From: Arcobacteraceae bacterium
GTDB lineage: Bacteria; Campylobacterota; Campylobacteria; Campylobacterales; Arcobacteraceae
Assembly (NCBI GenBank): GCA_963662945.1
Contig: OY759974.1
Coordinates: 704,001 to 768,000 of the forward strand
Reading direction: 5' to 3'
Length of the DNA stretch: 64,000 nucleotides
The notes beneath the pieces are model-generated. The model was not told the origin of the DNA, made no database searches, and worked only from the letters and a program-made list of their open reading frames with translations. Below are positions 5,151-57,997 of the stretch, piece after piece. Numbering within the stretch: the stretch's first letter is position 1; each line of letters begins with the position of its first letter. The position numbers were made by a program, and so were the translations under genes.

Positions 5151-6656
5151 ATGAGATTAATAGTGGGTTTATTTGCAATAATGACAACTTTGATTATTGC
5201 AGTATATGTTATGTTATTTACAAGTTTTGGTCATGGTATTCTTTTACCAATAGCACAATCCAATATAGAATCAAACTTAAAAATCAAAAGCGCAAAATTT
5301 ACAAATTTTACTCTTACAACAAATAGTATTAATACTACACTTACACTTGATAATCAACCTATTCATATAGAAGGGAAATTTAATCTTATTAAAAAATTCA
5401 TTGACCTTTCTTATGATGTTAAAATAGATGATTTAAGTATTTTTAACGCTGTTTCAAATCAAAAACTTCAAGGAACTTTTTACACAGATGGAAAAGTTAT
5501 GGGTGTTTTAGGAAATATTGGTATTTTAGGAAAAGCTTCTTTTGCAAATGGTCAAACAAATTACGAGCTTCTTTTAAAAGAACATGATGTTACAAATATC
5601 AAATTTTCTTTACATAATATTGCTGTAGAAAAACTTCTTTGGATGGTATCTCAACCACAATATACAACTGGACTTCTTAATATAACAGGAACAATAAAAT
5701 CTCTCAATAATCTTGATGGAGATATTCTAACAAAAGTTACAAATGGTGTTTTAAATAGCGAATATATCAATAAAACTTTTAAACAAAATTTACCTAAAAA
5801 AGCCACATTTGATACAACTATCACAACAAAACTACAAAAAGAAGATATAGTTTCTATAATAGATTTTAATTCTTTTGTAGCAACACTTAACACTAAAAAA
5901 ACTACTTTTAATATTCCAAGTGGGAAACTAACTACTGACTATCTACTTGATATTCCAAGTTTAAATGCTCTTTATTTTGTAACAAATCAAAAACTTAAAG
6001 GTGGAATCACTATAAATGGAGATGTTACATTTGATAAAACACTTCTCGCTACTTTTAATAGTAAAAAATTTGATGGAACACTCCAAGGGAAACTTGATAA
6101 CAATAAATTAAATGTACAGCTTAATAATATCCAATCAACAAAACTTTTGGATATGCTTTATTATCCAGAAATTTTTAAATCAAATATCAAACTTGACTTA
6201 GATTATGATATTGCTACAAAAAAAGGATTATCAAAACTTTCAACAAACAATGGCCAGTTTCTAACAAATCAAACAACAGACCTATTAAAAAAATTTACAA
6301 AATATGATTTAACTATGGAAATTTATGATGTTACTAATCTTACAACGAAGATAGATAATACTACTTTACAAAATGACTTATATATGAAAAGTAAAAATAG
6401 TGAAATCAAATCAAAAATATTTACAGTTGATACAGCAAAATCAATCATAAATGCAGATTTAACACTCCAATATAGAAAATACGATATGGGTCTAAAACTT
6501 ACAGGGGAAATTGCCAATCCTAAAGTAAAACTTGATATAGGTAAAGCCATAGAAAATAAGGCAAAAGAGAAACTAAAAGAAACTATCAATGAAAAATTAA
6601 AAGATAAACTTAAAGATGAAAATATAGGAAATATTCTAAATAGCTTTTTCAAATAA
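5151..6656 (+). CDS. AsmA-like beta-rich membrane-anchored hypothetical protein
   Basis: N-terminal TM (LFTSFG), internal repeat (YDVKIDDLS..NQKLQG / YLLDIPSLN..NQKLKG), C-terminal LTGEIANPKVKLD followed by amphipathic helix. Confidence 0.5.
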   Translation: MRLIVGLFAIMTTLIIAVYVMLFTSFGHGILLPIAQSNIESNLKIKSAKFTNFTLTTNSINTTLTLDNQPIHIEGKFNLIKKFIDLSYDVKIDDLSIFNAVSNQKLQGTFYTDGKVMGVLGNIGILGKASFANGQTNYELLLKEHDVTNIKFSLHNIAVEKLLWMVSQPQYTTGLLNITGTIKSLNNLDGDILTKVTNGVLNSEYINKTFKQNLPKKATFDTTITTKLQKEDIVSIIDFNSFVATLNTKKTTFNIPSGKLTTDYLLDIPSLNALYFVTNQKLKGGITINGDVTFDKTLLATFNSKKFDGTLQGKLDNNKLNVQLNNIQSTKLLDMLYYPEIFKSNIKLDLDYDIATKKGLSKLSTNNGQFLTNQTTDLLKKFTKYDLTMEIYDVTNLTTKIDNTTLQNDLYMKSKNSEIKSKIFTVDTAKSIINADLTLQYRKYDMGLKLTGEIANPKVKLDIGKAIENKAKEKLKETINEKLKDKLKDENIGNILNSFFK

Positions 6657-6723: not shown

Positions 6724-8010
6724 ATGAGCGAACAACAAAATAAACCTCTACAAATAAATCCAATTAAACTTTCTCAACCTATGGGTGCGCTATTGTGCTT
6801 TTTAGGTATCAAAAATACAATGCCACTTATGCATGGTGCGCAAGGTTGTGCCAGTTTTTCAAAAGTTTTTTTCACAAGACATTTTAGTGATCCCATTGCA
6901 GTACAAACAACAGCAGTAAACGATATAACTGCTGTTATTGATGGTGGAGATTATAGTATCTCTGAAGCTGTAAAAAATATCACAAAAAAAGTTAAGCCAG
7001 ATTTAGTAGGACTCTTTACAACTGGAATGACGGAAACAAAAGGTGATGATATTAAAGGTGCAACTTTTTTATTAAAAGATGTACAAAAGATGGTTTATGT
7101 TCATACTCCTGATTTTGAGGGTGGACTTGAAAGTGGTTATGCAAAATCAATAGAAGCTATTATAGAACAATTAGTCACTCCTACAACAAACATTGATAAC
7201 AAAAAAGCAGTTCTTATTCCTAATGTAAATTTTACACCTATAGAGGTGGAAAAAATCAAAGAACAGATAGATTTATTTGGTTATGAAACATTAGCCTTAC
7301 CAGATATCAGTCAATCTCTTGATGGACATTTAGGATTAAAACAAGGTGCATTAAGTAGTGGGGGAATAAGTATTGAAGAGATTGAAAAACTTGGGAGTTC
7401 TCAAGTTGTTATAACAATTGGAAACTCTGTGGAAAAAGCTGGAAAGATTTTAAATACAAAAAATGAGAATATGATTCATCTTCATTTTGATACGGTAAGT
7501 GGATTACTTAAAGCAGATAAATTCTACAAAGGTTTAATGGATATTAAAAAATTAACAAAACCTAATCCTTCTATTGTAAGATGGAGAAAAAGATTACAAG
7601 ATGCACTTTTAGATACACATTTTGCACTAGGTGGAACAAAAGTAGTTATCGCTGCAGAACCTGATCAAATATTAAGTATTACTACAACTATTAAAGAAGC
7701 TGGAGCAAATATAACAGCTGTAGTATCTCCAACCAAAAGTGTAAGTTTAGAAATACTTGATTGCAAAAATGTAATTATAGGAGACTTTGAAGATGTGGAA
7801 AATCAACTACAAAATGCTGATATTCTTATCTCAAATTTTCATGGAGAAAGAATATGTAATACCCATAAAAAAGCACTTATGGTAAGAGGTTTTCCTAACT
7901 ATGAATTAGTAGGAAACAACCTAAAAAATGATACTTTATATGAGGGAAGTTGTTATATGCTTTTTGAAATAGCAAATATAATAAATCATTATAAATATGG
8001 TCAGCATTAA
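6724..8010 (+). CDS. nifN: Nitrogenase FeMo-cofactor scaffold subunit NifN
   Basis: INPIKLSQPMGA, PLMHGAQGCASF, RHFSDPIAVQTTA, DALLDTHF; followed by nifX. Confidence 0.92.
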   Translation: MSEQQNKPLQINPIKLSQPMGALLCFLGIKNTMPLMHGAQGCASFSKVFFTRHFSDPIAVQTTAVNDITAVIDGGDYSISEAVKNITKKVKPDLVGLFTTGMTETKGDDIKGATFLLKDVQKMVYVHTPDFEGGLESGYAKSIEAIIEQLVTPTTNIDNKKAVLIPNVNFTPIEVEKIKEQIDLFGYETLALPDISQSLDGHLGLKQGALSSGGISIEEIEKLGSSQVVITIGNSVEKAGKILNTKNENMIHLHFDTVSGLLKADKFYKGLMDIKKLTKPNPSIVRWRKRLQDALLDTHFALGGTKVVIAAEPDQILSITTTIKEAGANITAVVSPTKSVSLEILDCKNVIIGDFEDVENQLQNADILISNFHGERICNTHKKALMVRGFPNYELVGNNLKNDTLYEGSCYMLFEIANIINHYKYGQH

Positions 8011-8027
8011 ATCAGACAAAAATAGTA

Positions 8028-8043
8028 TGGAACAGTTTTTGCA
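8028..8043 (+). promoter_or_regulatory. sigma54 (-24/-12) promoter of nifX operon
   Basis: TGGAACAGTTTTTGCA: GG(8029-30)-N10-GC(8041-42), in the 66-bp nifN-nifX gap. Confidence 0.8.
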
Positions 8044-8076
8044 TTTTATATAATATAAATCAAAAAAGGAAATTAC

Positions 8077-8475
8077 ATGGGATCAACAATAAAAGTTACT
8101 TCGAATAATTCGGGAAAAGGTTCTATAAGAGTTGCATTTGCAACTAATGATAATGAAAATATTGATGCACATTTTGGAAGTGCTGCACAATTTAATGTAT
8201 ATGATATCAGTGCAGATGATTGTGAAATATCAACAATTATTAAAATTGAAGAGAAAGATGTTGATAGAACTGTAGCACTTCTTAAAGGTGTAGATATCGT
8301 TTATTTTGTAAATATTGGAGCAACTGCTGCTGCAAAAATTATAAACTCTGGAATTTTTCCAATTAAGTATAAAGAAGTTGTTTCTATTGATGAAGAGATT
8401 AAAAAATTAACAGATATGTTAAATAATAATCCAGCACCTTTTATTAAAAAAATACTTGAAAAAAAGGCAGCATAA
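8077..8475 (+). CDS. nifX: NifX FeMo-co precursor carrier
   Basis: RVAFATND..IDAHFGSA..IGATAAAKII..GIFPIK. Confidence 0.88.
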   Translation: MGSTIKVTSNNSGKGSIRVAFATNDNENIDAHFGSAAQFNVYDISADDCEISTIIKIEEKDVDRTVALLKGVDIVYFVNIGATAAAKIINSGIFPIKYKEVVSIDEEIKKLTDMLNNNPAPFIKKILEKKAA

Positions 8476-8897
8476 TGGAAAACTTATTTATTGAAACATT
8501 AATTGGTCAAGTAAGAGCTTTAGATCAATTTGGTACTTGGACAAATAGAACAGATAGAGATATCTTAGAAGAAAAATATGTAAAGTCAAAAGAAGATTTA
8601 AAAAATATTCCAGTAATTGCAGATATTGACGAGATGCAAATACAGGATATCAGATTAATATACCAAGCTATAGCTTTAGCTTTTGAGAAAAAAACAGGAA
8701 TTATGTGTAGTACTATCATGGAGATGAGTCATGAAGGTTTTGGACGAGCTGTTGTTATAGCTGACAAAATTGTAATTGTAAACAAATTTTTTAAAGATGC
8801 ACATAGATTTTCATTCAGAACATATGATGATTTAGTTAAAGAGGGTGATAAACTTCTTGATAGTGCTATAAAAATTTACGACGAATATAAAAAATAA
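8475..8897 (+). CDS. NifX-associated nitrogen fixation protein (DUF269)
   Basis: RALDQFGTW, MSHEGFGRAV, DAHRFSF; TAATG coupling to nifX. Confidence 0.8.
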   Translation: MENLFIETLIGQVRALDQFGTWTNRTDRDILEEKYVKSKEDLKNIPVIADIDEMQIQDIRLIYQAIALAFEKKTGIMCSTIMEMSHEGFGRAVVIADKIVIVNKFFKDAHRFSFRTYDDLVKEGDKLLDSAIKIYDEYKK

Positions 8898-8912
8898 GGG
8901 GGAATAGAAAAA

Positions 8913-9425
8913 ATGAAATATGGAATCTTTGTAGGAACAGCAGGTGGTACTTCAATGAAAGTAGCAAAAGCTTTAATAAAAGAATTTGATATAGATGAAG
9001 ATGATGTTATAAATATGGAAGAAGATTTTGATGATATTGATCAAATGCTTGAATATGATGTACTATTTTTAGGAAGTTCAACTTGGGGACAAGGTGATGT
9101 TCACTTTTCTTGGGTTGACCCAATTTTAGAAATTGAAGATGATGAAATTGATTTTAGTGGAAAAACAGTAGCATTTTTTGGTGCAGGTGATTGTAAAAAA
9201 CATGGTGAACATTTTTGTTCAGCATTAGGTAAACTTCATAAAACTTTTACTAAAGCTGGTGCTAAAGCAATTGGTTTTATACCAAAAGATGGGTATGATT
9301 ATGAATTCTCATTAGCAGAAATGGATGGAAAACTTTGTGGGTGTGCCATTGATGAGCATAATGAGAAAGGAAAAACCAAAGAGAGAATAAGTACTTGGAT
9401 TAGTGCTTTAAAAGAAGAACTTTAA
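8913..9425 (+). CDS. Long-chain flavodoxin (NifF-like nitrogenase electron donor)
   Basis: GIFVGTAGGTS, LGSSTWGQG, VAFFGAGD, IDEHNE. Confidence 0.85.
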   Translation: MKYGIFVGTAGGTSMKVAKALIKEFDIDEDDVINMEEDFDDIDQMLEYDVLFLGSSTWGQGDVHFSWVDPILEIEDDEIDFSGKTVAFFGAGDCKKHGEHFCSALGKLHKTFTKAGAKAIGFIPKDGYDYEFSLAEMDGKLCGCAIDEHNEKGKTKERISTWISALKEEL

Positions 9426-9447
9426 ACTCTTATAGAAAGGATTAAAA

Positions 9448-9849
9448 ATGTATATGGTAGTAGCGGTATTCAATCAATACGATTTGAAAAATGTTTTAGA
9501 AGATTTATTTGAAAATAATATAGAAGGTGTCACAGTAAGTGATGTTATAGGTAAAGGGTCTTTTGGGTTAAAAGAAGCTGATAATCAACCTACAGACTTA
9601 GTAGCAAAAGTAAAACTTGAAATAGTTGTTTCTGATGTAAAACATAGAGAAATTGCGATGGAATGTATAAGAACAAACTGTCAAGATTTAAGTAGAGGCG
9701 CTGGTAAAATGTGGTGGCTTGAGGTAGGTGGTGTTGAAAGAATCAGAACAGGTGAAAGAGATGCTGAAGCTTTAACAACACAAATTGATAAAAAAATACC
9801 AAATGTACCGGTTGCGTTTACAACTGCAATTGATACACCTTGTAGTTAA
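9448..9849 (+). CDS. P-II family signal transduction protein (atypical)
   Basis: GVTVSDVIGKG, KVKLEIVV, GAGK, RIRTGE. Confidence 0.85.
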   Translation: MYMVVAVFNQYDLKNVLEDLFENNIEGVTVSDVIGKGSFGLKEADNQPTDLVAKVKLEIVVSDVKHREIAMECIRTNCQDLSRGAGKMWWLEVGGVERIRTGERDAEALTTQIDKKIPNVPVAFTTAIDTPCS

Positions 9850-9865
9850 GATAAAGGAATAGATT

Positions 9866-10207
9866 ATGCAAACAAAAGAGAAGTCATTGGATGAGTTTTA
9901 CAAACTGACTGATGCGGAGGACTATTTTGATTTTTTTGAGATAGACTATGATAAAAGCTTAGTAAATGTTAAAAGATTTCATATCTTAAAAGAGTATGGT
10001 GCTATGATAAAAACAGGTTTTTCTAACTTAAAAGGTGAAGATGCAAAACTTCTAGATTTTTTGAAATTTTCACTTTTAAAGGTTTATGGAGACTTTAAAA
10101 ATGGTTATGCACCAAGCGCTGCTGATGTATGGAATATGTTTAAAGATGGTAAATTAAGTGGGTGTGTGAGCTGTACACCAACACCAGGAAATAGTTGTGG
10201 CTGCTAA
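9866..10207 (+). CDS. nifW: Nitrogenase-stabilising protein NifW
   Basis: LTDAEDYFDFFEIDYD..VNVKRFHILK. Confidence 0.85.
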   Translation: MQTKEKSLDEFYKLTDAEDYFDFFEIDYDKSLVNVKRFHILKEYGAMIKTGFSNLKGEDAKLLDFLKFSLLKVYGDFKNGYAPSAADVWNMFKDGKLSGCVSCTPTPGNSCGC

Positions 10208-10592
10208 AGAGTTCTCAGTAGATGAGAATATCGTTTTACACGATAGTGTTACCGCAAGTAGATCTGGTCGAGATGAAGATGAACCAAAATTTAAAGAGGG
10301 TCAAAAAGTTGAACTTCTTGAAGATGTTGTAAATGATGGAACTTATCCACATGCAAAAATAGGAACATTGATGATGCCTAAAGGCTCAGTTGGGTATATC
10401 AAATCAATGGGAGAATTTTTACAAGTTATCCGTGTGTATGAGGTTCATTTTTTTGGAACAGATATGGAAGTTGAAATTATTGGCTGTCGAGAACATGAAC
10501 TAAAAGCTGTTGATGATGGATGTGATGATGAAACCACAGAGTCACCTTTATTTAAGGCTATGTTAGAAAAAAGAAAAAACAACAAATCTTAA
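10197..10592 (+). CDS. nifZ: Nitrogen fixation protein NifZ
   Basis: PKF..GQKV..VVNDGTYP..GSVGYI..G.FLQ..Y.VHF..IGCREHEL; GTG start with AGGA SD, overlaps nifW. Confidence 0.88.
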   Translation: MAAKEFSVDENIVLHDSVTASRSGRDEDEPKFKEGQKVELLEDVVNDGTYPHAKIGTLMMPKGSVGYIKSMGEFLQVIRVYEVHFFGTDMEVEIIGCREHELKAVDDGCDDETTESPLFKAMLEKRKNNKS

Positions 10593-10605
10593 AAGGAGAG
10601 AAGAT

Positions 10606-10950
10606 ATGGCAAAAGTTATTTTTATGCATTTTAAAGAAGAAACAGACGGTGTTTATGATGCAAAAATTGGTGAACCACTAGTTAGATTAGCAAAAGAAAA
10701 AGGTATACCTTTACCACTTGATTGTGAAGATGGTCAATGTGGAAGCTGTTTAGTTTCTGTTGAGAATTTAGCAGATGAAGAACCTACAAGTTACATGGAA
10801 GATATGGAACTTGAAAAATTAGTAGAGCTTGGTGCTATTACTCAAAAAGAAGCAAATACTTGCCAACAATTCACAGTTGCACCTAAAGTAAGACTTGCAT
10901 GTCAAACACTTGTAAAAGGTGACATTTTAGTAAAACCTTACAAGGGTTAA
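10606..10950 (+). CDS. [2Fe-2S] ferredoxin, FeSII (Shethna protein II)-like
   Basis: CEDGQCGSC..RLACQ with long helical insert. Confidence 0.75.
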   Translation: MAKVIFMHFKEETDGVYDAKIGEPLVRLAKEKGIPLPLDCEDGQCGSCLVSVENLADEEPTSYMEDMELEKLVELGAITQKEANTCQQFTVAPKVRLACQTLVKGDILVKPYKG

Positions 10951-10979
10951 CATTTAATTTAAAATAAAAGGAGAAAAAA

Positions 10980-11276
10980 ATGACAACAAGAGTAGAAATT
11001 ATAAATGACTTTTTAGCAATCAATGTTAAAGAAGGTAGTACAATACAAGATATCGTAGAGGCAAGTGGTTCAGCACTTCCATTTGGATGTAGAGATGGTG
11101 AATGTGGAACTTGTGTAGTTGAAGTTGAATCAGGTATGGAATTTTTATCACCAAAAACTGATAAAGAAGTAAAAGTTTTAAAAGAGATTTGTTCAGGAAC
11201 ATGTACTCCTCAGTCAAGACTTTCATGTCAAATGAAAATATCTAAACCAAACGGTGTAGTTAGATTAAAATACTAA
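10980..11276 (+). CDS. [2Fe-2S] ferredoxin
   Basis: PFGCRDGECGTC..RLSCQ. Confidence 0.88.
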   Translation: MTTRVEIINDFLAINVKEGSTIQDIVEASGSALPFGCRDGECGTCVVEVESGMEFLSPKTDKEVKVLKEICSGTCTPQSRLSCQMKISKPNGVVRLKY

Positions 11277-11295
11277 TTGTATAGTAAACATACAC

Positions 11296-11334
11296 TAAAT
11301 TGTACCAATGAACTCCCGTTTATGGTACAATTTA
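11296..11334. repeat. Perfect 12-bp inverted repeat overlapping the putative rpoN promoter
   Basis: TAAATTGTACCA (11296-11307) N15 TGGTACAATTTA (11323-11334). Confidence 0.8.
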
Positions 11335-11338
11335 ATTC

Positions 11339-12592
11339 ATGAATAACATACGATTAAATGTAAAACAAAAGCAATCATTACAACTTTCCCTTAGGACTTG
11401 GTTACCTTTACTTCAAGCTCCACTTCAAGAATTAGACACATTATTTAAAGAATACAGTTATGAAAATCCTTTTTTAGAGGTACGTTCTTCTTTTGAATCA
11501 AGCAGTTCAAATGGTGGTTCATCATACAGTGGCAACGGAGAAGATGATAAAAGAGGTTTTATTGAAAATATGAGCATTTATACTGAATCTATCTATGATA
11601 AAATAGATTCACAAATCTGTCCCCCACTATTTCCTACACCAAATTCACAAAAAGTAGCACAAGAGATTCTTTTTTATATTAATGATGAAGGATATTTTGA
11701 AGGAAATATAGAAAAAATAGCTCATAAATGCGGTGTTTACAAAGAATTTGTTGAAACTATTCGACAAAGATTTGCTTATATTGAGCCAATTGGTGTAGGT
11801 GCTTATGATTTAAAAGAATCATTTCTTTTTCAACTCAATGATTTAGATATTGATGAAGAATTATACAGTTTTATCAAAAAAATTATTGCAAATTTAAAAA
11901 ATATAGATAAATATTGTACACATCATAGATTTGAAGATGCAAAAGAGATTATCAAAAAACTAAAATCTCCACCTGCTGTTGAATATCTTGCGGATCAACC
12001 TTACATCATACCAGACTTTTTTGTAGAAGTTGATGATGATATTCGTATAAAAATAAACAATGATTACTATCCAGATATTATTGTAAGTGATCCTTTTAAA
12101 ACAAAAAATGATGAAATAAAGAAAAAGCTTAAAGAAGCAAGGGATTTAGTAAATCTTCTAGAACTTCGAAAATCTACACTCTATAAATTGATTTTAATCA
12201 TAGTTGAGAAACAAATTGCATTTTTTATAGGAAGTGAACTTAAACCCTTAACTATGTCAGAAGTAGCAAATGAATTAGGTTTTGAAGAATCAACAATTAG
12301 CCGTGCAGTGTCAAATAAATATATTAAATGTTCAAGAGGAACTTATCCTTTAAAATATTTTTTTACAAATGCTGTATCAAAAAACTTATCTTCTTCTGAA
12401 ATTAAAAATTATATTGCATCAGTTGTTGAAGCTGAAGATCATGAAGAACCTTTTACAGATCAAGATTTAGTTGAAATGGTACAAAAAAGATACAATGTAG
12501 AAATGGTAAGAAGAACCATCACAAAATATAGAAAACTTTTAGATATGCCCTCTTCTAAAGAGAGAAAAAAAATCTATAAAATGCAAGATTAA
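11339..12592 (+). CDS. rpoN: RNA polymerase sigma-54 factor
   Basis: Q/L-rich region I, LKPLTMSEVA..ESTISRAVSNKY HTH, RpoN box RRTITKYR. Confidence 0.95.
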   Translation: MNNIRLNVKQKQSLQLSLRTWLPLLQAPLQELDTLFKEYSYENPFLEVRSSFESSSSNGGSSYSGNGEDDKRGFIENMSIYTESIYDKIDSQICPPLFPTPNSQKVAQEILFYINDEGYFEGNIEKIAHKCGVYKEFVETIRQRFAYIEPIGVGAYDLKESFLFQLNDLDIDEELYSFIKKIIANLKNIDKYCTHHRFEDAKEIIKKLKSPPAVEYLADQPYIIPDFFVEVDDDIRIKINNDYYPDIIVSDPFKTKNDEIKKKLKEARDLVNLLELRKSTLYKLILIIVEKQIAFFIGSELKPLTMSEVANELGFEESTISRAVSNKYIKCSRGTYPLKYFFTNAVSKNLSSSEIKNYIASVVEAEDHEEPFTDQDLVEMVQKRYNVEMVRRTITKYRKLLDMPSSKERKKIYKMQD

Positions 12593-12646: not shown

Positions 12647-13588
12647 TTATGAAGCTAAATTAGAAAGGTATTTTCCTAATTTTTGTGCTGTGTCAGTATC
12701 TTGAATTTGTGTATTTACCATCGACATAATCTGTTTATATTTAGACATATCTAAATTATTATTTGTTGTATCAGATTCTGTCGATGTTTCTTCACTTTTT
12801 AGTGCATCAAGAAGTGTAGAAACTAATTTCATAGTATACTCTTGCATATCTTGTGTACTTGAAGATGATTGTGAAGCATCATATGCAGCTTGTTCTGCTG
12901 CTGAAACTACACCATCTTGATTTGTATCAGCAGCTTCATACTCCTCTTCCTCTTCAGAAGAACCACCTGCTCCCATCATTCCACCAGGAGGTGGACCAGA
13001 TGGTTTTTCCACACCTAATTGAGATAAAACTTCTCCCGCTTCATCTTTAGACATTTCACCACTTTCTACACTCTCAAAAAGTGTAGTTAATCCTTGTGCT
13101 AATTCTTCTTGTGTAATACTTCCATCTTCATCAGTATCTAAAGATGTAAATAATTCATCAGATATATCCAACTCAGATAGTGATAATAAGCCATCCGAAT
13201 CAGAATCTTTACTAGTAAAAATATCACTAGCCATCTGCTGGGCATTTGGTTGCCCATGGTTAGGTGGTGGAGGCGGTACTTCAAGACCTAAAGAAGATAA
13301 GAAAGTTCCAAATTCTTCTGGTGTTAATTCTTGATTTTTCATTGAGTCAAGTTTTGATGAAATACTTGATTCCAATTCATCTGAAGATAAACTACCATCA
13401 CCATTTGTATCTAACGATGAGAAATCCTCTTCAGAGATTCCTAATTCATCGATTGATAATAAACTATCACCATCGATATCACTTGTTTCCATAACTTTTG
13501 ATACCAAATCAGCCGCACTTGGTGGTTTTGGTTGAGTCATATTTGAAGCTTGCATAATACTACTATAACTACTTGTTGAAACATTCAT
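12647..13588 (-). CDS. Acidic multi-EF-hand Ca2+-binding protein with poly-Pro linkers
   Basis: Five DxDxDG-type loops (DIDGDSLLSIDE, DTNGDGSLSSDE, DSDSDGLLSLSE, DTDEDGSITQEE, DTNQDGVVSAAE). Confidence 0.85.
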   Translation of the reverse strand: MNVSTSSYSSIMQASNMTQPKPPSAADLVSKVMETSDIDGDSLLSIDELGISEEDFSSLDTNGDGSLSSDELESSISSKLDSMKNQELTPEEFGTFLSSLGLEVPPPPPNHGQPNAQQMASDIFTSKDSDSDGLLSLSELDISDELFTSLDTDEDGSITQEELAQGLTTLFESVESGEMSKDEAGEVLSQLGVEKPSGPPPGGMMGAGGSSEEEEEYEAADTNQDGVVSAAEQAAYDASQSSSSTQDMQEYTMKLVSTLLDALKSEETSTESDTTNNNLDMSKYKQIMSMVNTQIQDTDTAQKLGKYLSNLAS

Positions 13589-50201: not shown

Positions 50202-50771
50202 TTACATTTTAGATTGGATAAACTCATCCATCTCAGAAACAATCTCTTCTATTGTTCTTTCACCATTAATCTTTACAAGCATATTTTTTGCTGTATAAAA
50301 GTTTTGTATTTCTGCTAATGGTTCTGTATATACTTTCATTCTGTTATTAAATACTTCATTATTATCATCTGCACCTCGTGAACGACCAAGAACTCTATCT
50401 CGTGCTACTTCTTCTGAAACTTCTACTTCAATAACATTCACCAATTTTACTTCATCTTCATGTACTAAATAGTTATCCAATGCTTCCATTTGTTCTAAAC
50501 TTCTTGGATAACCATCGATAACGATAACTGGTGTTGGTGCTTTTTTTATAGCATTTACAATTGTCTCTATTGCTACTTCAATTGGCACTAAATTTCCAGC
50601 ACTCATATATTTATCTAGTGTCTTTCCTAACTCACTTCCTGTTTTTACTTCTGCTCTAAACATATCTCCTGTTGAATAGTGTGTAATATTTTCGTGGTTT
50701 TTAGCAATAAGTTCTGCATCTGTAGTTTTTCCACTTCCAGGTGCACCAATTATCAAAAATAGCTTTTTCAT
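50202..50771 (-). CDS. adk: Adenylate kinase, short LID-less epsilonproteobacterial type
   Basis: [31 protein letters not shown]. Confidence 0.9.
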
Positions 50772-50897: not shown

Positions 50898-51539
50898 ATG
50901 AATTTAATGCTATTTGGTGCACCTGGTGCAGGAAAAGGTACACAAGCAAAATTTTTAATAGAAAAGTACGGTATCCCACAAATCTCAACAGGAGATATTT
51001 TAAGAGCTGCAATTGCAGATGAAACAGCTATGGGTATGGAAGCAAAAAGATTCATGGATGAAGGAAAATTAGTTCCAGATTCAACTATTATTGGTATTAT
51101 TAAAGATAGATTAGCTGAAGATGATTGTAAAAATGGATTTATCTTAGATGGTTTTCCAAGAACATTACCTCAAGCTGAAGCTTTAAGTGAACTTATGAAA
51201 GAGATGAATATCTCTTTAGATAAAGTTATCTCTTTAAATGTTCCAGATGAACTAATCGTTGGTAGAATCACAGGAAGAAGAGTTTGTTCTAAATGTGGTG
51301 CTTCATTCCATGTAGAATTTAATCCTTCAAAAGAAGAAAATGTATGTGACTACTGTGGTGGAGAACTTATCATAAGAAAAGATGATAATGCTGAAACTGT
51401 AAAAAGTAGACTTGGGGCTTACCATGAGCAAACAGCACCACTTATAGCATTTTACACAAATATGGGTGTGATGGTAGAACTTGATGGAACAAAAGACGTA
51501 TCAGAAGTAACAGCTGATATGATTGCAGCACTGAACTAA
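50898..51539 (+). CDS. adk: Adenylate kinase, long Zn-LID type
   Basis: GAPGAGKGTQ, STGDILR, LDGFPRT, CSKC..CDYC, RKDD. Confidence 0.93.
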   Translation: MNLMLFGAPGAGKGTQAKFLIEKYGIPQISTGDILRAAIADETAMGMEAKRFMDEGKLVPDSTIIGIIKDRLAEDDCKNGFILDGFPRTLPQAEALSELMKEMNISLDKVISLNVPDELIVGRITGRRVCSKCGASFHVEFNPSKEENVCDYCGGELIIRKDDNAETVKSRLGAYHEQTAPLIAFYTNMGVMVELDGTKDVSEVTADMIAALN

Positions 51540-51652: not shown

Positions 51653-52861
51653 ATGAAAAAATTTATAACTTACAATGAATCATTAAATATATTAAATACC
51701 ATTTTATATGAAAACAAATCAACACAAAAACTTTTTATAAGTGACAGTTTAGGAAGAGTATTAGCCAAAGATATCGTTGCATCAGAAAACTCACCAGCAT
51801 TTGAAACTTCTGCTATGGATGGATATGCTCTCAAACATGAAGATTTACATCTAGGCAAACTAAAAATCACAGATAAAAATCCAGCTGGTACAATGATAAC
51901 ATCAAAAGTAGAAACAGGAACATGTATCAAAACATTTACAGGTTCACTTATGCCAAAAGGAAGTGATACACTTATACCTATAGAAAATGTTACTGTTGAG
52001 GGTGAATATATTATTATCAATGAAGAGGTTCCAAAAAACTTTGCAGTAAGAGCAGTTGGGGAAAACTACAAAAAAGATGAAGTTCTTATAAATGCAGGAA
52101 CTTTAATCGACTTTGCACAAATCGGTGTAATGGCTAGTTTAAATGTGGCTCAAGTAGAAGTATATACACAACCAACTATTGCTATAGCAAGTACAGGAAG
52201 TGAAATACTAGATGTGGGAGAAACACAAACAAATGACTCACAAATAAGAAGTTCAAATCATCTTACTTTAGAAGCAATAGCTAGAAAAAATGGTGCAGAT
52301 GTTTTGCAAATGGGTGTCGTAAAAGATGATAAAGAATCTATAACTAACCTTCTTAAAAATGCCCTTGAAAACGCTGATATAGTTGTAACTACTGGTGGGG
52401 TTAGTGTTGGAGATTATGATTTTGTAAAAGATGTTATTAAAGAAGATTTACAATGTGAAGTCCTCTTCCAAGGTGTAGATATCAAACCGGGGCAACATAT
52501 ACTTTTTGCTAAAAAAGATGAAAAGTTTATCATAGGACTTCCAGGTTTTGCATACTCTAGTACTGTAACATTCTTGCTTTATGTACTACCACTTATTTAT
52601 AAACTTAAAGGTGCAAATGAAAAACTCAATATAATAGAAGCTATCTGTGATGAAAACTTTCCAAAAAAAGGAAATAAAACTACTTTTACAGCTTGTAATA
52701 TAGAATTTAAAGATGGGAACTATCATATTAACTTTGATGGGAAAAAAAGTGGAAGTAGTGCTATTTTGACAAATATGCTTGGAAATTGTGGATTGTTATT
52801 TCAAGAGGCGGATAGTGGTGCTATATCTAAATGGGATAGAGTTAAGGTTATTTTACTTTAA
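51653..52861 (+). CDS. moeA: Molybdopterin molybdotransferase
   Basis: SAMDGYA, STGSE, TTGGVSVGDYD, KPG, LPG. Confidence 0.95.
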   Translation: MKKFITYNESLNILNTILYENKSTQKLFISDSLGRVLAKDIVASENSPAFETSAMDGYALKHEDLHLGKLKITDKNPAGTMITSKVETGTCIKTFTGSLMPKGSDTLIPIENVTVEGEYIIINEEVPKNFAVRAVGENYKKDEVLINAGTLIDFAQIGVMASLNVAQVEVYTQPTIAIASTGSEILDVGETQTNDSQIRSSNHLTLEAIARKNGADVLQMGVVKDDKESITNLLKNALENADIVVTTGGVSVGDYDFVKDVIKEDLQCEVLFQGVDIKPGQHILFAKKDEKFIIGLPGFAYSSTVTFLLYVLPLIYKLKGANEKLNIIEAICDENFPKKGNKTTFTACNIEFKDGNYHINFDGKKSGSSAILTNMLGNCGLLFQEADSGAISKWDRVKVILL

Positions 52862-52886
52862 CTCTATACTAAATTTTCAAAAAATA

Positions 52887-54464
52887 TTACGAATTTCCTC
52901 GTATTATTTCCTCTTTTAAAGCCTGTTTATCGATCTTAGACTTATCTTTAGAATCCATAGGCATATTTGCTTTAAAAATAATCGTTGTAGGTATCATATA
53001 AGATGGAAGATGTTTTTTGAGTTCAAAGATTATCTCATTTTTAGCTAACTCTTTTGTTCCACTATAAACTAAAACTACCTCTTCCTCTATTTTCTCATTT
53101 TCTATCCCAAAAACTGCACACTCTTTTACCTCTGGAATATTTTCATATACAACAGTTTCAATTTCAAGTGGGCTTATTCTATAACCACTTGTTTTAATCA
53201 TATCATCATGTCTACATACAAAATAGATATAACCCTCTTCATCTTTATATACATAATCCCCAGTTGCAACAACAACCTCATCTGTTAAACCTTGTTGTAG
53301 GTCTATGACATTTTCTAGAATTTTAATAGATTTAAAACTATTGTCAGTATCTTCTTGTGAGTTCCAAAATCCACGATAAATTCCTGCACCTCTATGGATA
53401 AGCTGCCCTACTTCTCTTGGAGCACATTCATATCCTTTTTCATTGATAACATAAAGGTCTACATCTGGGATAGCTTTTCCTATAGAGTTTGGTCTTATTT
53501 TTATCTGAGAGGGATCAAGGTATGCTGAACGAAATGCTTCTGTATGTCCACTCATAGAGTAAAACTTCGTTTTAGGAAAATACTCTTGAATTTTTTCAAT
53601 CATTGTCATAGTTACATTTCCACCTGAAGAAGTAATAACTCTTACATGTTCAAGTTGTGAAGGACTTGGAAGTCTATGACTATCTTCATCAAACATTTGT
53701 GAGAAATGTACAGGCATAGCACCTATTACAGTTACTTTATCTTTTAAAATATGTGCAAAAAAATCACTTGGTGTAAAAAATGTATAGATAGCAAAAGTAG
53801 CTCGTGCATAAAATGAAGTAAATATTTGATTTAAACCATAATCAAAACTAAATGAGAGTAATCCACTTAATACATCATCCTCTTTTATCTCTAAATAGTT
53901 ATAGACAACTCTTGCACTATCTATAAGGTTTTTATGTGAGATAACAACCCCTTTTGGAAAACCACTTGAAGCAAAAGAATAAGTTATCGCTGCATTATCA
54001 TGCCCTTTGATACTACATTCATAACTACTACTATAACATTTGTAAATCTCTTTAAAAGAAACTATTTCCTCATCAGAACTTTCCACTGTGATGATTTTTC
54101 CACTATATGAAGTCTCTTTTAGGGTTTTTAACTTTTGCTCATCTGTTATCATACAGCTTATATCACAATCTTTGATGATATACTCAACTTGTTCTGCTTT
54201 TAATAACTTTGTAATAGGAACTAAAACATAATCAGTTGATAACACAGCTAAGATAGAGATAACTTTTTGGTTGTTTTTATTTGAGTAAATACCTATTCTT
54301 GCACCTTTTCCCAACTCTAAAGTTGTGATATAGTGAGCTAGTTTATTTACTTGTTCATACACTTCACTGTATGTAAGCTTCCCAACTTTATCAATAAGAG
54401 CTATTTTATCAGGTGTTTTTTGATTTGCGATTTCTACTAGGTTTCTTATACTATTGATAGACAT
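52887..54464 (-). CDS. AMP-binding (ANL superfamily) adenylate-forming enzyme with divergent P-loop
   Basis: YSFASSGFPKGV, FDYGLNQ, GHTEAFRS, SIGKAIP, TGD, RHDDMIKTSGYRISP, KIDK. Confidence 0.85.
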   Translation of the reverse strand: MSINSIRNLVEIANQKTPDKIALIDKVGKLTYSEVYEQVNKLAHYITTLELGKGARIGIYSNKNNQKVISILAVLSTDYVLVPITKLLKAEQVEYIIKDCDISCMITDEQKLKTLKETSYSGKIITVESSDEEIVSFKEIYKCYSSSYECSIKGHDNAAITYSFASSGFPKGVVISHKNLIDSARVVYNYLEIKEDDVLSGLLSFSFDYGLNQIFTSFYARATFAIYTFFTPSDFFAHILKDKVTVIGAMPVHFSQMFDEDSHRLPSPSQLEHVRVITSSGGNVTMTMIEKIQEYFPKTKFYSMSGHTEAFRSAYLDPSQIKIRPNSIGKAIPDVDLYVINEKGYECAPREVGQLIHRGAGIYRGFWNSQEDTDNSFKSIKILENVIDLQQGLTDEVVVATGDYVYKDEEGYIYFVCRHDDMIKTSGYRISPLEIETVVYENIPEVKECAVFGIENEKIEEEVVLVYSGTKELAKNEIIFELKKHLPSYMIPTTIIFKANMPMDSKDKSKIDKQALKEEIIRGNS

Positions 54465-54474
54465 TCCCTACTCC

Positions 54475-55650
54475 TTATTTACTCATACCAAGTGTCCAGA
54501 TCTCATAATCTTTGTCCACTACAAGTGTTGGTGTTGTATTAAAATGTAAAAGCTTTTTATAAAAAAATGAGATAATATCTTCCATCTCTTCATTATCTAA
54601 AACTTTTGTAATTCCACCTGTTAATACTATAGAATTAAGTGTATCAAGTTTTATATTTAAGTATGATTTATGATGATGTGATATTTTATATAAAACTAAG
54701 AAAATAGAGAGTTGCATAAGAAGTTTTGTAGTCTTTGCATCTTTACTATCTAGCATGTTTTCTGTAGTATTAAGATGTGCTAAAAGTTCATATACAAACT
54801 CATTGTTTTTTGCAGTGTGTACTAAACTTTCTCTTGATTTATAAACACCAAGTTTTTTAAATACTAGTCTATCGTATTCATTCTCTGTAAGGATGTTATC
54901 ATCTACTAAATCTTTAGAGTAATGAATATCTGTCGTAGCCCCACCAATATCTATCACGATAAATGGATCAGCAACATCAAGTTTTGTATGAATCAATGGT
55001 AATGATTGATTTACGATATATGGTGTTGAGTATATCTGATTTGATGTAAGTTCATATAATCTTTTTATATCCTCTTTCCCCATAATATCTGCTTGGTAAA
55101 GGTTAGTTAAATACTCTTTTAAATCATCCTCTACCATTTTAAGTTTATTGTCTATGATATTTGGCAATACAACTAGATTTTCAATATTTTGTGTCAAAAA
55201 TTCAACTTGTGTTTGGCTTCCCACATAAACTATATTTGAGTAGTTTAATTTATCAAGATAGGTTATAAGTGTTTCATCAAATACATTTTGTACACTGTCA
55301 ATCCCACCTACAACAATAACCACATCAAGAGTATCAGTTGGTACTGCATAACTCTCAATTTGAGAATACACAACAGTTTCAATAATATTGATACCAGAAT
55401 TATACGCTATATTTGAAGCATATTTTAAACTAAATGATTCAGTAAGTCCAATAATAAGTGTACTTAATCCACCATTTGCAGAACTACAGATTTGTATCTC
55501 ATCTTTTTGATATTTTTGGATTGTCTCAGCACATTTAAATAGTAAATCATCATAAATATCTTTATCAAAATTTCTAAAATGATGAGAAATATTTCCATCA
55601 TCACATACTTTAAAATAAGTACTTCCTACATCTATTAACATTTTGCTCAT
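54475..55650 (-). CDS. glmL: Glutamate mutase reactivase GlmL (MutL of the glutamate mutase system; ASKHA ATPase fold)
   Basis: IDVGSTYFK, CSSANGGL, IDIGGATTDIHY, LTGG. Confidence 0.85.
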   Translation of the reverse strand: MSKMLIDVGSTYFKVCDDGNISHHFRNFDKDIYDDLLFKCAETIQKYQKDEIQICSSANGGLSTLIIGLTESFSLKYASNIAYNSGINIIETVVYSQIESYAVPTDTLDVVIVVGGIDSVQNVFDETLITYLDKLNYSNIVYVGSQTQVEFLTQNIENLVVLPNIIDNKLKMVEDDLKEYLTNLYQADIMGKEDIKRLYELTSNQIYSTPYIVNQSLPLIHTKLDVADPFIVIDIGGATTDIHYSKDLVDDNILTENEYDRLVFKKLGVYKSRESLVHTAKNNEFVYELLAHLNTTENMLDSKDAKTTKLLMQLSIFLVLYKISHHHKSYLNIKLDTLNSIVLTGGITKVLDNEEMEDIISFFYKKLLHFNTTPTLVVDKDYEIWTLGMSK

Positions 55651-57011
55651 AACATAACTCCAATATCATGGATGATTTGATTTACCACTGAGTTTGGATT
55701 TTCCCCAAGGTCTATTTTTGATTGTTCATATTTAAAACTTTTTTCACTTAAAGGAAGTTTCCCTTTTTTATAAATACGAATATTGCTATCTTTATCTCTT
55801 ACGGTGATAAGTTCATTGTTGTTTATAATATGTGGAGAGAATGGAACATCTATGATACCATTTTTAATAGAGTTGAATACTTTTCTCCAAAGAGTATCTG
55901 CATGGTCATTAAAAATTGCTTCAAATATCTCATCCACTTCTCTTTCTAGATTTTCCTCTTCTTCCTCATCTACAAAAGCAGGAACTCCTCGAAGTGTTTT
56001 AAGAGTATATTGTACATTTGAAACAGCTTGGGCATTGTCCTCTTTTGTAGGAATACCAAAAGCTTCTGCACGTGTTTTTGTGATAATTTTATCTGCTTTT
56101 ACCATACCAGCTATCATAGCACCTATATCTATGAGGCTATCTGATTTAAACTTATCTCGTGGGAAAGCTCCCATCCATTGATGATATACTAGATTTATAG
56201 TTGCATCAGTTACACCTATTTTTGCTGCATATTCATTTGCTTTTTTTCGTAATACTTTTGACATAACTAAATCTTGATTTAAACTTCCACTTTGAGCAAA
56301 ACTTACAGAGAAAGATTTTACACCCTCTTCTAGTGAAAGTAGCATCTCACAGATTTGTATAACTATAGTAATACAAGGTGGCACTAAAGTTGCTGTAAGT
56401 GGTCCAAATGATTCTCTATTGATTGGTTCATTGAGTGTTGAGTATTTTGCACAAACTCTTTCCACATGTTTCCAATATAAAAAAGCTTTATCTTGTGGAA
56501 AGTTTTTTGAATATGGGAGGATATAGGTTATAGGTCCACCCTCTATCTCAAAAACACCACTTGCTATTGCCATCTCTACAAGTAGTCTTGCATCTGGTGT
56601 TCCATGTCGTAAACTCACAGGTGTATTAAAATGTGTAACCATTTTTCGTGTAGTTCTATATCCATGGTTTATAAGTGGATAACCGTTTAAAAGGTCAGTT
56701 TCTGTCTCTTCAGAAAGTCTCAACATCTTTGCAGCACTTCCATAGTCATTAAGTCTTGTATGAGAATCAATTGTCATAGGTAAGATATCTACTACAGGTG
56801 CAAATTGTTCATAGAGTGCATACATTTTTTCAAAAGTTGGAAATCCACCTCTTGGTTGTACTAAAGTCTTATCTCTATTGTTTTTAAACTTATGAGATAT
56901 AAAAAGCTCTTTATTTGCATTTTTTACAAACTCTTCAATCTCAGAAAAATCAAAATTATCAACATATTGGTTTGATACGATTATTTCTCTATCTCTTTGT
57001 AGTAAACTCAT
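55647..57011 (-). CDS. glmE: Glutamate (methylaspartate) mutase, E subunit
   Basis: QPRGG, TIDSHTRLN, LLNGYP, RHGTPDARLL, EGGPITY, NRESFGPLT, HQWMGAFP, EAFGIPT. Confidence 0.92.
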   Translation of the reverse strand: MSLLQRDREIIVSNQYVDNFDFSEIEEFVKNANKELFISHKFKNNRDKTLVQPRGGFPTFEKMYALYEQFAPVVDILPMTIDSHTRLNDYGSAAKMLRLSEETETDLLNGYPLINHGYRTTRKMVTHFNTPVSLRHGTPDARLLVEMAIASGVFEIEGGPITYILPYSKNFPQDKAFLYWKHVERVCAKYSTLNEPINRESFGPLTATLVPPCITIVIQICEMLLSLEEGVKSFSVSFAQSGSLNQDLVMSKVLRKKANEYAAKIGVTDATINLVYHQWMGAFPRDKFKSDSLIDIGAMIAGMVKADKIITKTRAEAFGIPTKEDNAQAVSNVQYTLKTLRGVPAFVDEEEEENLEREVDEIFEAIFNDHADTLWRKVFNSIKNGIIDVPFSPHIINNNELITVRDKDSNIRIYKKGKLPLSEKSFKYEQSKIDLGENPNSVVNQIIHDIGVML

Positions 57012-57415
57012 AGTAAGTATCCTTGTACATGGTTATCAAGAATATTTAAACCTTCCATCAAATCAATTTGATGAAAAACCAAATCAAAACCATACTCTTT
57101 GAATTTTGGTACTATTAAGCTCTCATCACCCTCACCAACACTCAAGTTTCCACCAATAACAAATACTACATCTTTAAGTTTATACTTATCTTTTAAAATC
57201 ATCAAATCTCTACACCACCCTTCGGCTTCACCGTTAAGTGAAGAGATAAGTAAAACCTTCGCATCTGTTTCTATGACTGCATCAATAAACTCTTCTAAAT
57301 AGGTATTAACCCCAAGATTAAATACCTCATATCCCCTACTTTGTAAAGAGATATCAATAAGTCTATTTGCTACAACATGGATATCATTTCCAACTACACC
57401 TGTTACAACTTTCAC
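57008..57415 (-). CDS. Glutamate mutase S (B12-binding) subunit
   Basis: GNDIHVVAN (DxHxxG-type), SSLNG, GGNL; GTG start with AGGA SD. Confidence 0.92.
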   Translation of the reverse strand: MKVVTGVVGNDIHVVANRLIDISLQSRGYEVFNLGVNTYLEEFIDAVIETDAKVLLISSLNGEAEGWCRDLMILKDKYKLKDVVFVIGGNLSVGEGDESLIVPKFKEYGFDLVFHQIDLMEGLNILDNHVQGYLL

Positions 57416-57514
57416 ATCTTATCCTAGTAAAAAAATTGTGTGATTATATCTAAATAGTGATTAAAAGTATTATTTGATATAATCCCATTACTAACATACA
57501 AAATAGGAAAATGA

Positions 57515-57997
57515 ATGAAATCATATACAGCAGATATCTGTGATAAACATCCACATGAAGTACAAGTACTAGACCCAATATTACAATCTTTTGGTGGCGT
57601 TTCAATGTGCCATGGAGAGATTGTAACAGTAAAACTTTTTGAAGATAATAAGGCTTTAGTAGAACTCTTAAGAGATAATAAGGGGCATGGGAAAGTATGT
57701 GTTGTTGATGTTGAAGGTGATTATTGTGCTGTAGTTGGTGAAACACTTATGGGATATGCTTATCATAACGGTTGGGAAGGTATCATCATCAATGGTTATG
57801 TAAGAGACACACACCAAACTACACAAATACCTGTAGGACTTTGGGCTTTGGGAACTTATCCATTTAAAAGCCAAAAGAAACAAGTAGCAGAACACAATAT
57901 TGAACTAAACTTTGGAAATGTTACTTTTAGAGTTGGTGAGTTTTTATATGCTGATAGAGATGGAGTTGTTGTAACAAAAGAGAATATAGTTTTATAG
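57515..57997 (+). CDS. rraA: RraA family protein (RNase E inhibitor / HMG-aldolase fold)
   Basis: TADICD, FGG, FEDN, VVDVEG, NGWEGIIINGYVRD, YADRDGVV. Confidence 0.88.
   Translation: MKSYTADICDKHPHEVQVLDPILQSFGGVSMCHGEIVTVKLFEDNKALVELLRDNKGHGKVCVVDVEGDYCAVVGETLMGYAYHNGWEGIIINGYVRDTHQTTQIPVGLWALGTYPFKSQKKQVAEHNIELNFGNVTFRVGEFLYADRDGVVVTKENIVL

Follow-up and report, generated by a model that had tools for sequence, protein, structure and literature searches.

Why should an operon for the vitamin B12-dependent glutamate mutase end in a gene for an adenylate-forming enzyme rather than in the gene for methylaspartase? This question is raised by a 64,000-nucleotide stretch of DNA from an Arcobacteraceae bacterium (GenBank assembly GCA_963662945.1, contig OY759974.1, positions 704,001 to 768,000 of the forward strand; hereafter the window), in which the mutase genes glmS and glmE and a glmL/mutL-like gene are followed by a gene for a stand-alone AMP-binding ligase. 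The equilibrium of glutamate mutase favours glutamate, and thus a step that consumes the product, 3-methylaspartate, is needed; in fermenting bacteria this step is catalysed by methylaspartase. We favour, tentatively and with the reservations set out below, the reading that these genes belong to a conserved module that makes 3-methylaspartate and activates it by means of the ligase, free of methylaspartase, with a keto-acid branch provided by an RraA-type enzyme and an aminotransferase. Within such a module the ATP-dependent ligase is the strictly linked candidate for the consuming step.

The genes lie in the order glmS-glmE-glmL-ligase and are tightly coupled, with 4-nucleotide overlaps at the S/E and E/L junctions and a 10-nucleotide gap, holding the motif AAGGAG, between glmL and the ATG of the ligase gene. 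The operon is closed by a convergent moeA gene, 25 nucleotides separating the two stop codons. A preliminary sequence-only reading of the window had described these four coupled genes and their closure by moeA correctly, and it had rightly noted that no methylaspartase gene follows: none was found in the 64-kb window or within about 10 kb at any of the 80 related loci considered below. As an account of the conserved unit, its four-gene scope proved too narrow; the glmS-E-L-ligase core is confirmed, but the divergent RraA-like gene, which is part of that unit, and an aminotransferase gene of the gammaproteobacterial loci had been overlooked.

A scan of species-representative genomes with the ligase yielded 265 relatives, the best 80 loci of which (57-97% identity) were analysed, linkage being counted by tblastn only at loci with enough flanking sequence to be assessable. 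Among these 80 best loci, the linkage of the ligase to the glm genes is kept in every assessable case: glmL lies upstream of the ligase in 77 of 77 loci (directly adjacent in 76), and glmE and glmS are present in 71 of 71 and 66 of 66, respectively. The RraA-like gene was detected in 53 of 61 assessable loci (24 of 25 in Pseudomonadota and 29 of 35 in Campylobacterota) and is adjacent to and divergent from glmS in 45 of the 61. Clustering of all 1303 flanking open reading frames (ORFs) of the 80 loci revealed no further family in more than 16 loci. The carriers comprise 49 Campylobacterota, 29 Gammaproteobacteria (Colwelliaceae, Halieaceae, Granulosicoccaceae, Oceanospirillaceae, Alteromonadaceae, Cellvibrionaceae and Reinekea), one alphaproteobacterium and one bin labelled Paceibacteria, so that the earlier description of such a system as unexpected in Campylobacterota was mistaken as far as distribution is concerned. 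The Paceibacteria-labelled locus (L076) has neighbours of the Arcobacteraceae type, and its ligase is placed with those of Campylobacterales in the tree; it probably represents a mis-binned contig.

Pairwise identities of the ligases correlate with those of GlmE (r = 0.90), GlmL (0.87), GlmS (0.77) and RraA (0.81), as is expected both from co-inheritance of the module and from plain kinship of its carriers. In FastTree phylogenies the ligases from Proteobacteria fall into a single supported clade amid the campylobacterotal sequences, and GlmE and RraA likewise cluster by class; the trees are rooted at the midpoint only, and we therefore name no donor. Several loci depart from the common layout. 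L005 (4633-10001) has extra ORFs inserted at two junctions, glmE/glmL and glmL/ligase. In L045 (Colwellia maritima; 6295-6507) the RraA-like gene is reduced to a fragment of 71 codons. Five loci of the Arcobacteraceae type (L046, L047, L071, L072 and L077) carry a weakly ChaC-like (gamma-glutamylcyclotransferase-like; E = 7e-5) ORF after the rraA-like gene, and four of the five also have a 324-aa ORF of no known family and a DsbA-like gene between rraA and glmS. An Amidohydro_2 gene follows rraA in two Granulosicoccaceae loci (L068 and L075).

The two mutase subunits are readily recognized. GlmS matches PF02310 and NF002612 (154.3 bits; cut-off 110), with TIGR01501 at 94.6 bits falling under its cut-off of 135.8, and it can be aligned to the MutS/GlmS structures 1be1 and 1i9c, such that His13 corresponds to the cobalt-ligand His16 of 1be1. 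In its B12-binding motif (residues 11-16), D-I-H-V-V-A, the Gly of DxHxxG is replaced by Ala, a substitution conserved in 59 orthologues. GlmE matches PF06368 (382 bits; cut-off 26.6) and comes slightly below the cut-off of TIGR01503 (370.8 versus 390.1 bits); with the solved Clostridium enzyme (6h9e_B) it scores 267 bits. The glutamate-binding motifs reported in the sequence-only reading are present, and R54, R86, R135, E157, Y163 and Y167 align with R66, R100, R149, E171, Y177 and Y181 of the Clostridium enzyme, residues that, following the structural literature, we take to bind glutamate. All six are conserved in 66 orthologues, and we accordingly take L-glutamate to be the substrate of the mutase; GlmS and GlmE would thus constitute an adenosylcobalamin-dependent glutamate mutase.

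The third component, the GlmL-like protein, is more divergent: it scores 96 bits with PF13941 (cut-off 27), 77 with NF040745 (cut-off 475) and 51.5 with TIGR01319 (cut-off 204), and the sequence search gave no solved relative for it. Conservation across 75 orthologues extends to its ASKHA-type phosphate motifs, D.GSTYFK and DIGGATTD. Searches of the ESM Atlas with GlmE and with the ligase yielded nothing beyond the clusters of these proteins themselves or generic clusters of the family.

The catabolic glutamate mutase clusters have the same mutase subunits and substrate residues as the module, and differ from it in what follows them. On a Salmonella plasmid the order is glmS-glmL-glmE-mal, and on a Gemmobacter plasmid glmS-glmE-mal-CoA transferase-CoA ester lyase (CoA, coenzyme A); in both, the methylaspartase gene mal directly follows glmE, whereas the module has the ligase gene in the place of mal. 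The Salmonella order S-L-E also contrasts with S-E-L in the module, the GlmL of which is short and divergent, and the module GlmEs are 36-40% identical to the mal-linked GlmEs, as against at least 69% among themselves. When six-frame translations of the window and of the 80 loci were searched by phmmer with both canonical Mal sequences, no match (E <= 0.01) was obtained.

The ligase matches PF00501 and PF13193. Its best NCBIfam model is TIGR03098, that of the exosortase-A-associated ligases (466.7 bits, under the cut-off of 592.35), and the motifs FDYGLNQ, TEAFRS and SIGKAIP are present and conserved, which bears out the kinship with the exosortase group that the sequence-only reading had proposed from them. 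The closest solved single domains are adenylation (A) domains of nonribosomal peptide synthetases (NRPSs), namely TycA (142 bits), ApnA (140), GrsA (124) and VinN (114), the 208 bits obtained with LgrA arising from two domains that contribute about 100 each. When an AlphaFold2 model of the ligase (built with 43 orthologues; mean predicted local distance difference test score, pLDDT, 81.5) was compared with the PDB by Foldseek, CoA ligases and A domains were matched equally, with template modelling scores of up to 0.81 and no discrimination between the two. The best match among longer proteins is 30% identical, and no fusion to a carrier or transferase domain was seen in this search for fused or longer forms, which is weak evidence on the point.

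For the mapping of the substrate pocket, 863 A domains were aligned to a hidden Markov model (HMM) of the ligase family and numbered after GrsA. These domains were cut from 243 proteins of more than 900 residues that matched this ligase and hence form a biased sample; they derive from a search of protein representatives in which the 150 matches listed were the ligase's own 50% cluster and giant multi-A-domain NRPSs, and which, being uninformative as to outgroups, was reused only as A-domain background. The mapping reproduces what we take to be the specificity codes of Asp, Asn and Val domains, and in A domains with a loop one residue longer positions 330 and 331 move by one column. On this numbering the pocket residues D208, Y209, N212, T278, S280, M304, R312 and S313 correspond to GrsA positions 235, 236, 239, 299, 301, 322, 330 and 331, respectively. 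Seven of the eight are invariant in 78 glm-linked orthologues (the window and 77 loci, leaving out L007, which runs off its contig, and the truncated L015 and L033), and T278 is T in 77 of the 78. The amino-binding Asp at the column of D208 is nearly universal among the A domains (847 of 863); a basic residue at column 312 is found in only 15 of them, and none unites an aromatic residue at 209 with Ser280 and with a basic residue at either 312 or 313. Between the columns of E309 and Y315 the ligase has five residues, like 270 of the 863 A domains, 311 others having six and 179 having seven; a loop of this length is on the short side but nothing out of the ordinary. K510 corresponds to GrsA 517, the canonical A10 lysine, which is K in 789 of 863 A domains; among the 78 ligase orthologues this column holds K in 44 sequences, R and Q in 12 each, E in 4 and some other residue in 6.

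That a glutamate mutase feeds an enzyme activating 3-methylaspartate is already known from actinomycete antibiotic clusters. In vicenistatin biosynthesis, the mutase VinH/VinI is described as supplying 3-methylaspartate to the stand-alone enzyme VinN, which also takes L-Asp weakly (PMC11284099). VinN is reported to activate (2S,3S)-3-methylaspartate in beta-amino-acid mode via D230, F231 (position 236), S299 (301) and K330/R331, and to have a loop one residue shorter than usual (PMC11253843). By HMM column and motif, D208 of the ligase can be equated with D230 of VinN, Y209 with F231, S280 with S299, and R312 with K330/R331. The genomic setting of the ligase is different: loci of the module, all 80 considered, are devoid of the acyl carrier protein (ACP; VinL), pyridoxal phosphate (PLP)-dependent decarboxylase (VinO), second ligase, acyltransferase and polyketide synthase of the Vin system, and the module is a compact five-gene unit of Gram-negative marine bacteria that includes RraA-type and GlmL-like genes. 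Furthermore, the A10 lysine is not conserved in the module ligases. From the family matches and the pocket, we predict the ligase to be a 3-methylaspartate-adenylating enzyme of the amino-acid-activating type.

The window ligase has 33% identity to two annotated exosortase-A ligases, from an Aureimonas plasmid and from Sinorhizobium meliloti pSymB; each gene of these two overlaps that of a PLP-dependent decarboxylase, near an ACP gene and amid glycosyltransferase genes, an arrangement in these two members that recalls the VinN/VinO/VinL triad. They share with the window ligase the loop M-x-G-x-TEAFRS-x-YLD, including the Arg at position 330, but at positions 236, 239, 299 and 301 they have A/S/A/T as opposed to Y/N/T/S, and both keep the A10 lysine. 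Moreover, in contrast to them, the module has no decarboxylase, ACP or polysaccharide genes nearby, and its TIGR03098 score stays under the cut-off. We read the common TEAFRS-type loop as the same way of gripping the carboxylate of what would be different substrates.

The absence of partner genes bears directly on the destination of the activated product. Neither the ACPs nor the PLP decarboxylase of the two exosortase-A clusters had a phmmer match (E <= 0.01) in the window or the 80 loci; a single-sequence phmmer search is not very sensitive for ACPs, and the ORF clustering, too, brought out no small ORF that is conserved. In none of the 80 loci is the module accompanied by a carrier protein, PLP decarboxylase, transferase or polysaccharide gene, and the idea, put forward in the sequence-only reading, that methylaspartate is made and activated for a surface polymer, lipid or glycan is therefore left without support as to this destination. 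Its central part, the making and activation of methylaspartate, fits the amino-acid-activating type of the ligase and its VinN-like pocket.

The RraA-type gene and the aminotransferase gene suggest instead a keto-acid fate of 3-methylaspartate, namely 2-oxobutyrate. The RraA-type protein matches PF03737 (132.7 bits) and NF006875 (165.8; cut-off 136), whereas NF009134, the model of a putative HMG aldolase (HMG standing for 4-hydroxy-4-methyl-2-oxoglutarate), gives 146, under the cut-off of 196. Its R97-D98 dyad, which is R-Q in Escherichia coli RraA (1q5x), is intact and is conserved in 55 module-linked sequences. A role of this gene as an RNase E regulator was considered and rejected, as the catalytic dyad is invariant and Campylobacterota are not known to have RNase E. 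RraA homologues have been noted in organisms without RNase E, and in the HMG/4-carboxy-4-hydroxy-2-oxoadipate aldolase of this family, as described, Arg123 stabilises the pyruvate enolate, Asp124 binds the metal and oxaloacetate is decarboxylated as well (PMC5065237); R97-D98 is the counterpart of this Arg123/Asp124 pair.

An aminotransferase of the AspC/TyrB type (NF006719, 565.6 bits) is found in 16 loci, all gammaproteobacterial (L019, L022, L028, L038, L042, L045, L048, L050, L053, L056, L064, L067, L069, L074, L079 and L080), tail to tail with the RraA-like gene, except that in L050 it lies several genes away. Past the aminotransferase gene the neighbours vary from family to family, and the median pairwise identity of the aminotransferase among these loci (79%) is like that of the ligase (80%); both observations, made without a control, fit the aminotransferase gene having travelled with the module. 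A route of this kind has been described under the name 'glutamate mutase pathway' in E. coli W and Crookes, which the citing papers credit to Abramsky (1962) and Phillips (1972). In the version printed there, methylaspartate is transaminated to methyloxaloacetate, which gives rise to 2-ketobutyrate; for the later steps a promiscuous AspC and a decarboxylation that occurs spontaneously are invoked, and dedicated genes are not assigned. The gammaproteobacterial module resembles this 2-ketobutyrate/isoleucine route in having a candidate gene for each step; it differs in that its most tightly linked gene, that of the ligase, has no role there. The RraA-type enzyme and the gammaproteobacterial aminotransferase are, in our view, natural candidates for the methyloxaloacetate and 2-ketobutyrate steps.

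From the observed gene content, linkage, nearby absences and residue conservation we infer the following scheme, in which the two substrates, the acceptor, the end product and the direction in which the flux runs are predictions. The unit would consist of five genes, the rraA-like gene diverging from glmS-glmE-glmL-ligase, with an AspC-type aminotransferase gene added in many Gammaproteobacteria. GlmS and GlmE, kept active by the GlmL-like ATPase, would convert L-glutamate to (2S,3S)-3-methylaspartate. The translationally linked ligase, acting in place of methylaspartase, would capture this product with ATP as 3-methylaspartyl-AMP, Asp208 gripping the amino group and Arg312 the free carboxylate, much as in VinN, and would hand the acyl group to an acceptor from outside the module, such as CoA, an amine or a carrier whose gene is unlinked. 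The RraA-type enzyme and the aspartate-type aminotransferase, most likely the pair that handles the keto-acid branch, would lead from 3-methylaspartate through 3-methyloxaloacetate to 2-oxobutyrate and CO2; transamination followed by decarboxylation could thereby serve as a second, irreversible sink.

Several observations weigh against this scheme. The correspondence of the pocket with that of VinN comes from the mapping of HMM columns and motifs as opposed to a structural alignment and is suggestive; the Phe of VinN is Tyr in the ligase, and its K-R pair is R-S, and VinN, at 114 bits, is not its nearest solved relative (about 140 bits for TycA and ApnA). In the AlphaFold2 model the pLDDT drops below 50 in the pocket loops 204-206 and 306-313. 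The non-conserved A10 lysine is odd for an active adenylating enzyme. No acceptor is encoded near the module in the flanks of the 80 loci, the RraA-like gene is missing from 8 of 61 assessable loci, and the aminotransferase is found in no campylobacterotal flank among the 80. Besides, no obvious part falls to the ligase in the 2-oxobutyrate branch, nor to the RraA-type enzyme and aminotransferase in activation, so that the two halves do not yet make one pathway. Finally, the search for mal covered the window and locus flanks of up to about 10 kb, as distinct from entire genomes.

The last of these points is what an ordinary catabolic glutamate mutase, with mal and the mesaconate-pathway genes elsewhere in the genome and the ligase as an unrelated neighbour, would have in its favour. 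Such an arrangement is disfavoured, and we consider it highly improbable: the ligase stays beside the mutase genes in all assessable loci whatever the flanking genes, mal directly follows glmE in both canonical clusters and occurs in neither the window nor the 80 loci, and the GlmE identities set the module apart from the mal-linked enzymes. A more serious competitor, although in our estimation an unlikely one, takes the module as a dedicated glutamate mutase pathway to 2-oxobutyrate, destined for isoleucine or propionyl-CoA, in which the ligase is an accessory acting on another substrate. The RraA-type gene with its intact R-D dyad, linked in 53 of 61 loci, and the aminotransferase adjacent in the 16 gammaproteobacterial loci would both find their place in it; the chemistry is documented in E. 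coli, where the available descriptions give no dedicated genes, and oxaloacetate decarboxylation is reported within the RraA family (PMC5065237). Yet the ligase, which sits inside the mutase operon, is linked more tightly than RraA (77 of 77 versus 53 of 61), an ATP-dependent ligase would be needless for the route, the amino-binding Asp and the Arg of the pocket suit an amino dicarboxylate and not 2-oxobutyrate or propionate, and no campylobacterotal locus has the aminotransferase.

The identity of the ligase substrate allows for two further explanations. The ligase might have as its substrate an acidic amino acid other than the mutase product (L-aspartate, L-glutamate or a derivative, for example) and have only regulation or a precursor pool in common with the mutase. 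The Arg-bearing TEAFRS loop also occurs in exosortase-A ligases that have no mutase partner, so that the loop alone does not specify the methyl branch, and VinN itself is stated to accept L-Asp weakly (PMC11284099). We nevertheless regard this explanation as rather improbable in view of the operon linkage of ligase and glmSEL, invariant across two phyla, and of a pocket unlike the exosortase type at 236, 239, 299 and 301, which points to a different substrate; positions 236, 239 and 301 are invariant in the 78 orthologues, and position 299 nearly so. Alternatively, the mutase might act on a glutamate analogue, for instance a 4-substituted glutamate built by the RraA-type aldolase and the aminotransferase, with the ligase activating the rearranged product in a small natural-product pathway. 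Pairs of an aldolase and an aminotransferase can indeed build 4-substituted glutamates, and enzymes of the RraA family are described as class II pyruvate aldolases (PMC5065237). With all six glutamate-binding residues of GlmE unchanged, and with campylobacterotal loci that have no aminotransferase, we give this possibility very little credence.

The activation of 3-methylaspartate by a module-encoded ligase thus remains the reading that we tentatively prefer. A bolder form of it, which we hold to be possible but doubtful, would make the module an undescribed B12-dependent unit of primary metabolism, widespread in marine Campylobacterota and Gammaproteobacteria, in which a carrier-independent, VinN-like ligase without the canonical A10 lysine uses ATP to pull 3-methylaspartate from an unfavourable equilibrium. 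The product would be a new 3-methylaspartyl metabolite, perhaps an amide, a CoA ester or a conjugate bound to the cell, and the RraA- and AspC-type genes would be the first dedicated genes of the 60-year-old glutamate mutase route to 2-oxobutyrate.

Table 1. Coordinates of the mutase-ligase locus and of other features in the window
Feature	Position	Strand	Description
glmS	57008-57415	-	135 aa, GTG start; B12-binding sigma subunit of glutamate mutase
glmE	55647-57011	-	454 aa; catalytic epsilon subunit of glutamate mutase
glmL/mutL-like gene	54475-55650	-	391 aa; accessory ATPase, divergent short form
AMP-binding ligase gene	52887-54464	-	525 aa; stand-alone adenylate-forming enzyme, predicted amino-acid-activating type
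RraA-type gene	57515-57997	+	160 aa; class II pyruvate aldolase/oxaloacetate decarboxylase family; divergent from glmS
rraA-like/glmS intergenic region	57416-57514		99 bp, divergent; presumed shared promoter region
Inverted repeat where the ligase and moeA genes converge	52836-52867		Possible bidirectional terminator
moeA	51653-52861	+	Convergent with the ligase gene
Short adenylate kinase gene	50202-50771	-	189 aa; NF001384, 329.7 bits
Long adenylate kinase gene	50898-51539	+	213 aa, zinc-lid domain; NF001380, 320.5 bits
ORF antisense to the rraA-like start	57450-57746	-	98 aa; no family match
Nitrogen-fixation accessory cluster	6724-12592	+	NifE/N-like, NifX-like, DUF269, flavodoxin, P-II, NifW, NifZ, two 2Fe-2S ferredoxins
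EF-hand protein gene	12647-13588	-	313 aa; several EF-hand calcium-binding motifs

The inverted repeat listed in Table 1, a hairpin of 13 pairs followed by a T-rich tail, is the sole terminator-like site between 52500 and 58200; with shuffled sequences yielding 1.7 +/- 1.6 such sites, the hairpin alone is weak evidence. A scan for promoters was uninformative in this AT-rich DNA (39 sites versus 31.4 +/- 4.8 in shuffles), and an Rfam scan of the entire window returned only tRNAs at the gathering score, with no riboswitch, the cobalamin riboswitch included. The small ORF that runs antisense to the first part of the rraA-like gene probably does not represent a gene. A citrate synthase gene comes after the rraA-like gene, and two adenylate kinase genes of different length classes stand back to back near moeA. 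In three Colwellia loci, L028 among them, a short EF-hand ORF lies downstream of the ligase gene.

The window as a whole has a G+C content of about 25-34%, and its closest relatives are metagenome-assembled genomes of Arcobacteraceae, with ligase identities of 95-97%. It carries rpoBC and tuf, and the nitrogen-fixation accessory cluster is followed by rpoN, from which we take the host to be a probably diazotrophic member of the Arcobacteraceae. The EF-hand protein gene adjoins a resistance-nodulation-division efflux operon.

As far as our searches reach, what is new here is a compact, carrier-free and RraA-linked module that is conserved in marine bacteria of two phyla and common in Campylobacterota. 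In Creative Commons-licensed PMC articles and bioRxiv we found nothing linking methylaspartate mutase with RraA, nothing on glutamate mutase in Campylobacterota and no experimental work on the exosortase-A ligase family; queries combining methylaspartate mutase with AMP-binding returned, judged by the listing, only unrelated work, and those for methylaspartate in Epsilonproteobacteria gave none on this module by title or opening of the abstract.

Glutamate mutase is otherwise familiar from glutamate fermentation, where it is paired with methylaspartase, from the haloarchaeal methylaspartate cycle and from a few actinomycete antibiotic clusters. The presence of the intact module across two phyla of abundant marine bacteria, among them sulfur-oxidising Campylobacterota, Colwellia, Halieaceae and Granulosicoccus, would add to these a further and common use of vitamin B12 and 3-methylaspartate in the sea. 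The module offers a compact, stand-alone candidate for a 3-methylaspartate-activating enzyme, as well as candidate genes for the steps of the glutamate mutase route to 2-oxobutyrate and isoleucine that have no gene assigned. Furthermore, through the common Arg-bearing specificity loop, it may provide a lead on the uncharacterised family of exosortase-A ligases.

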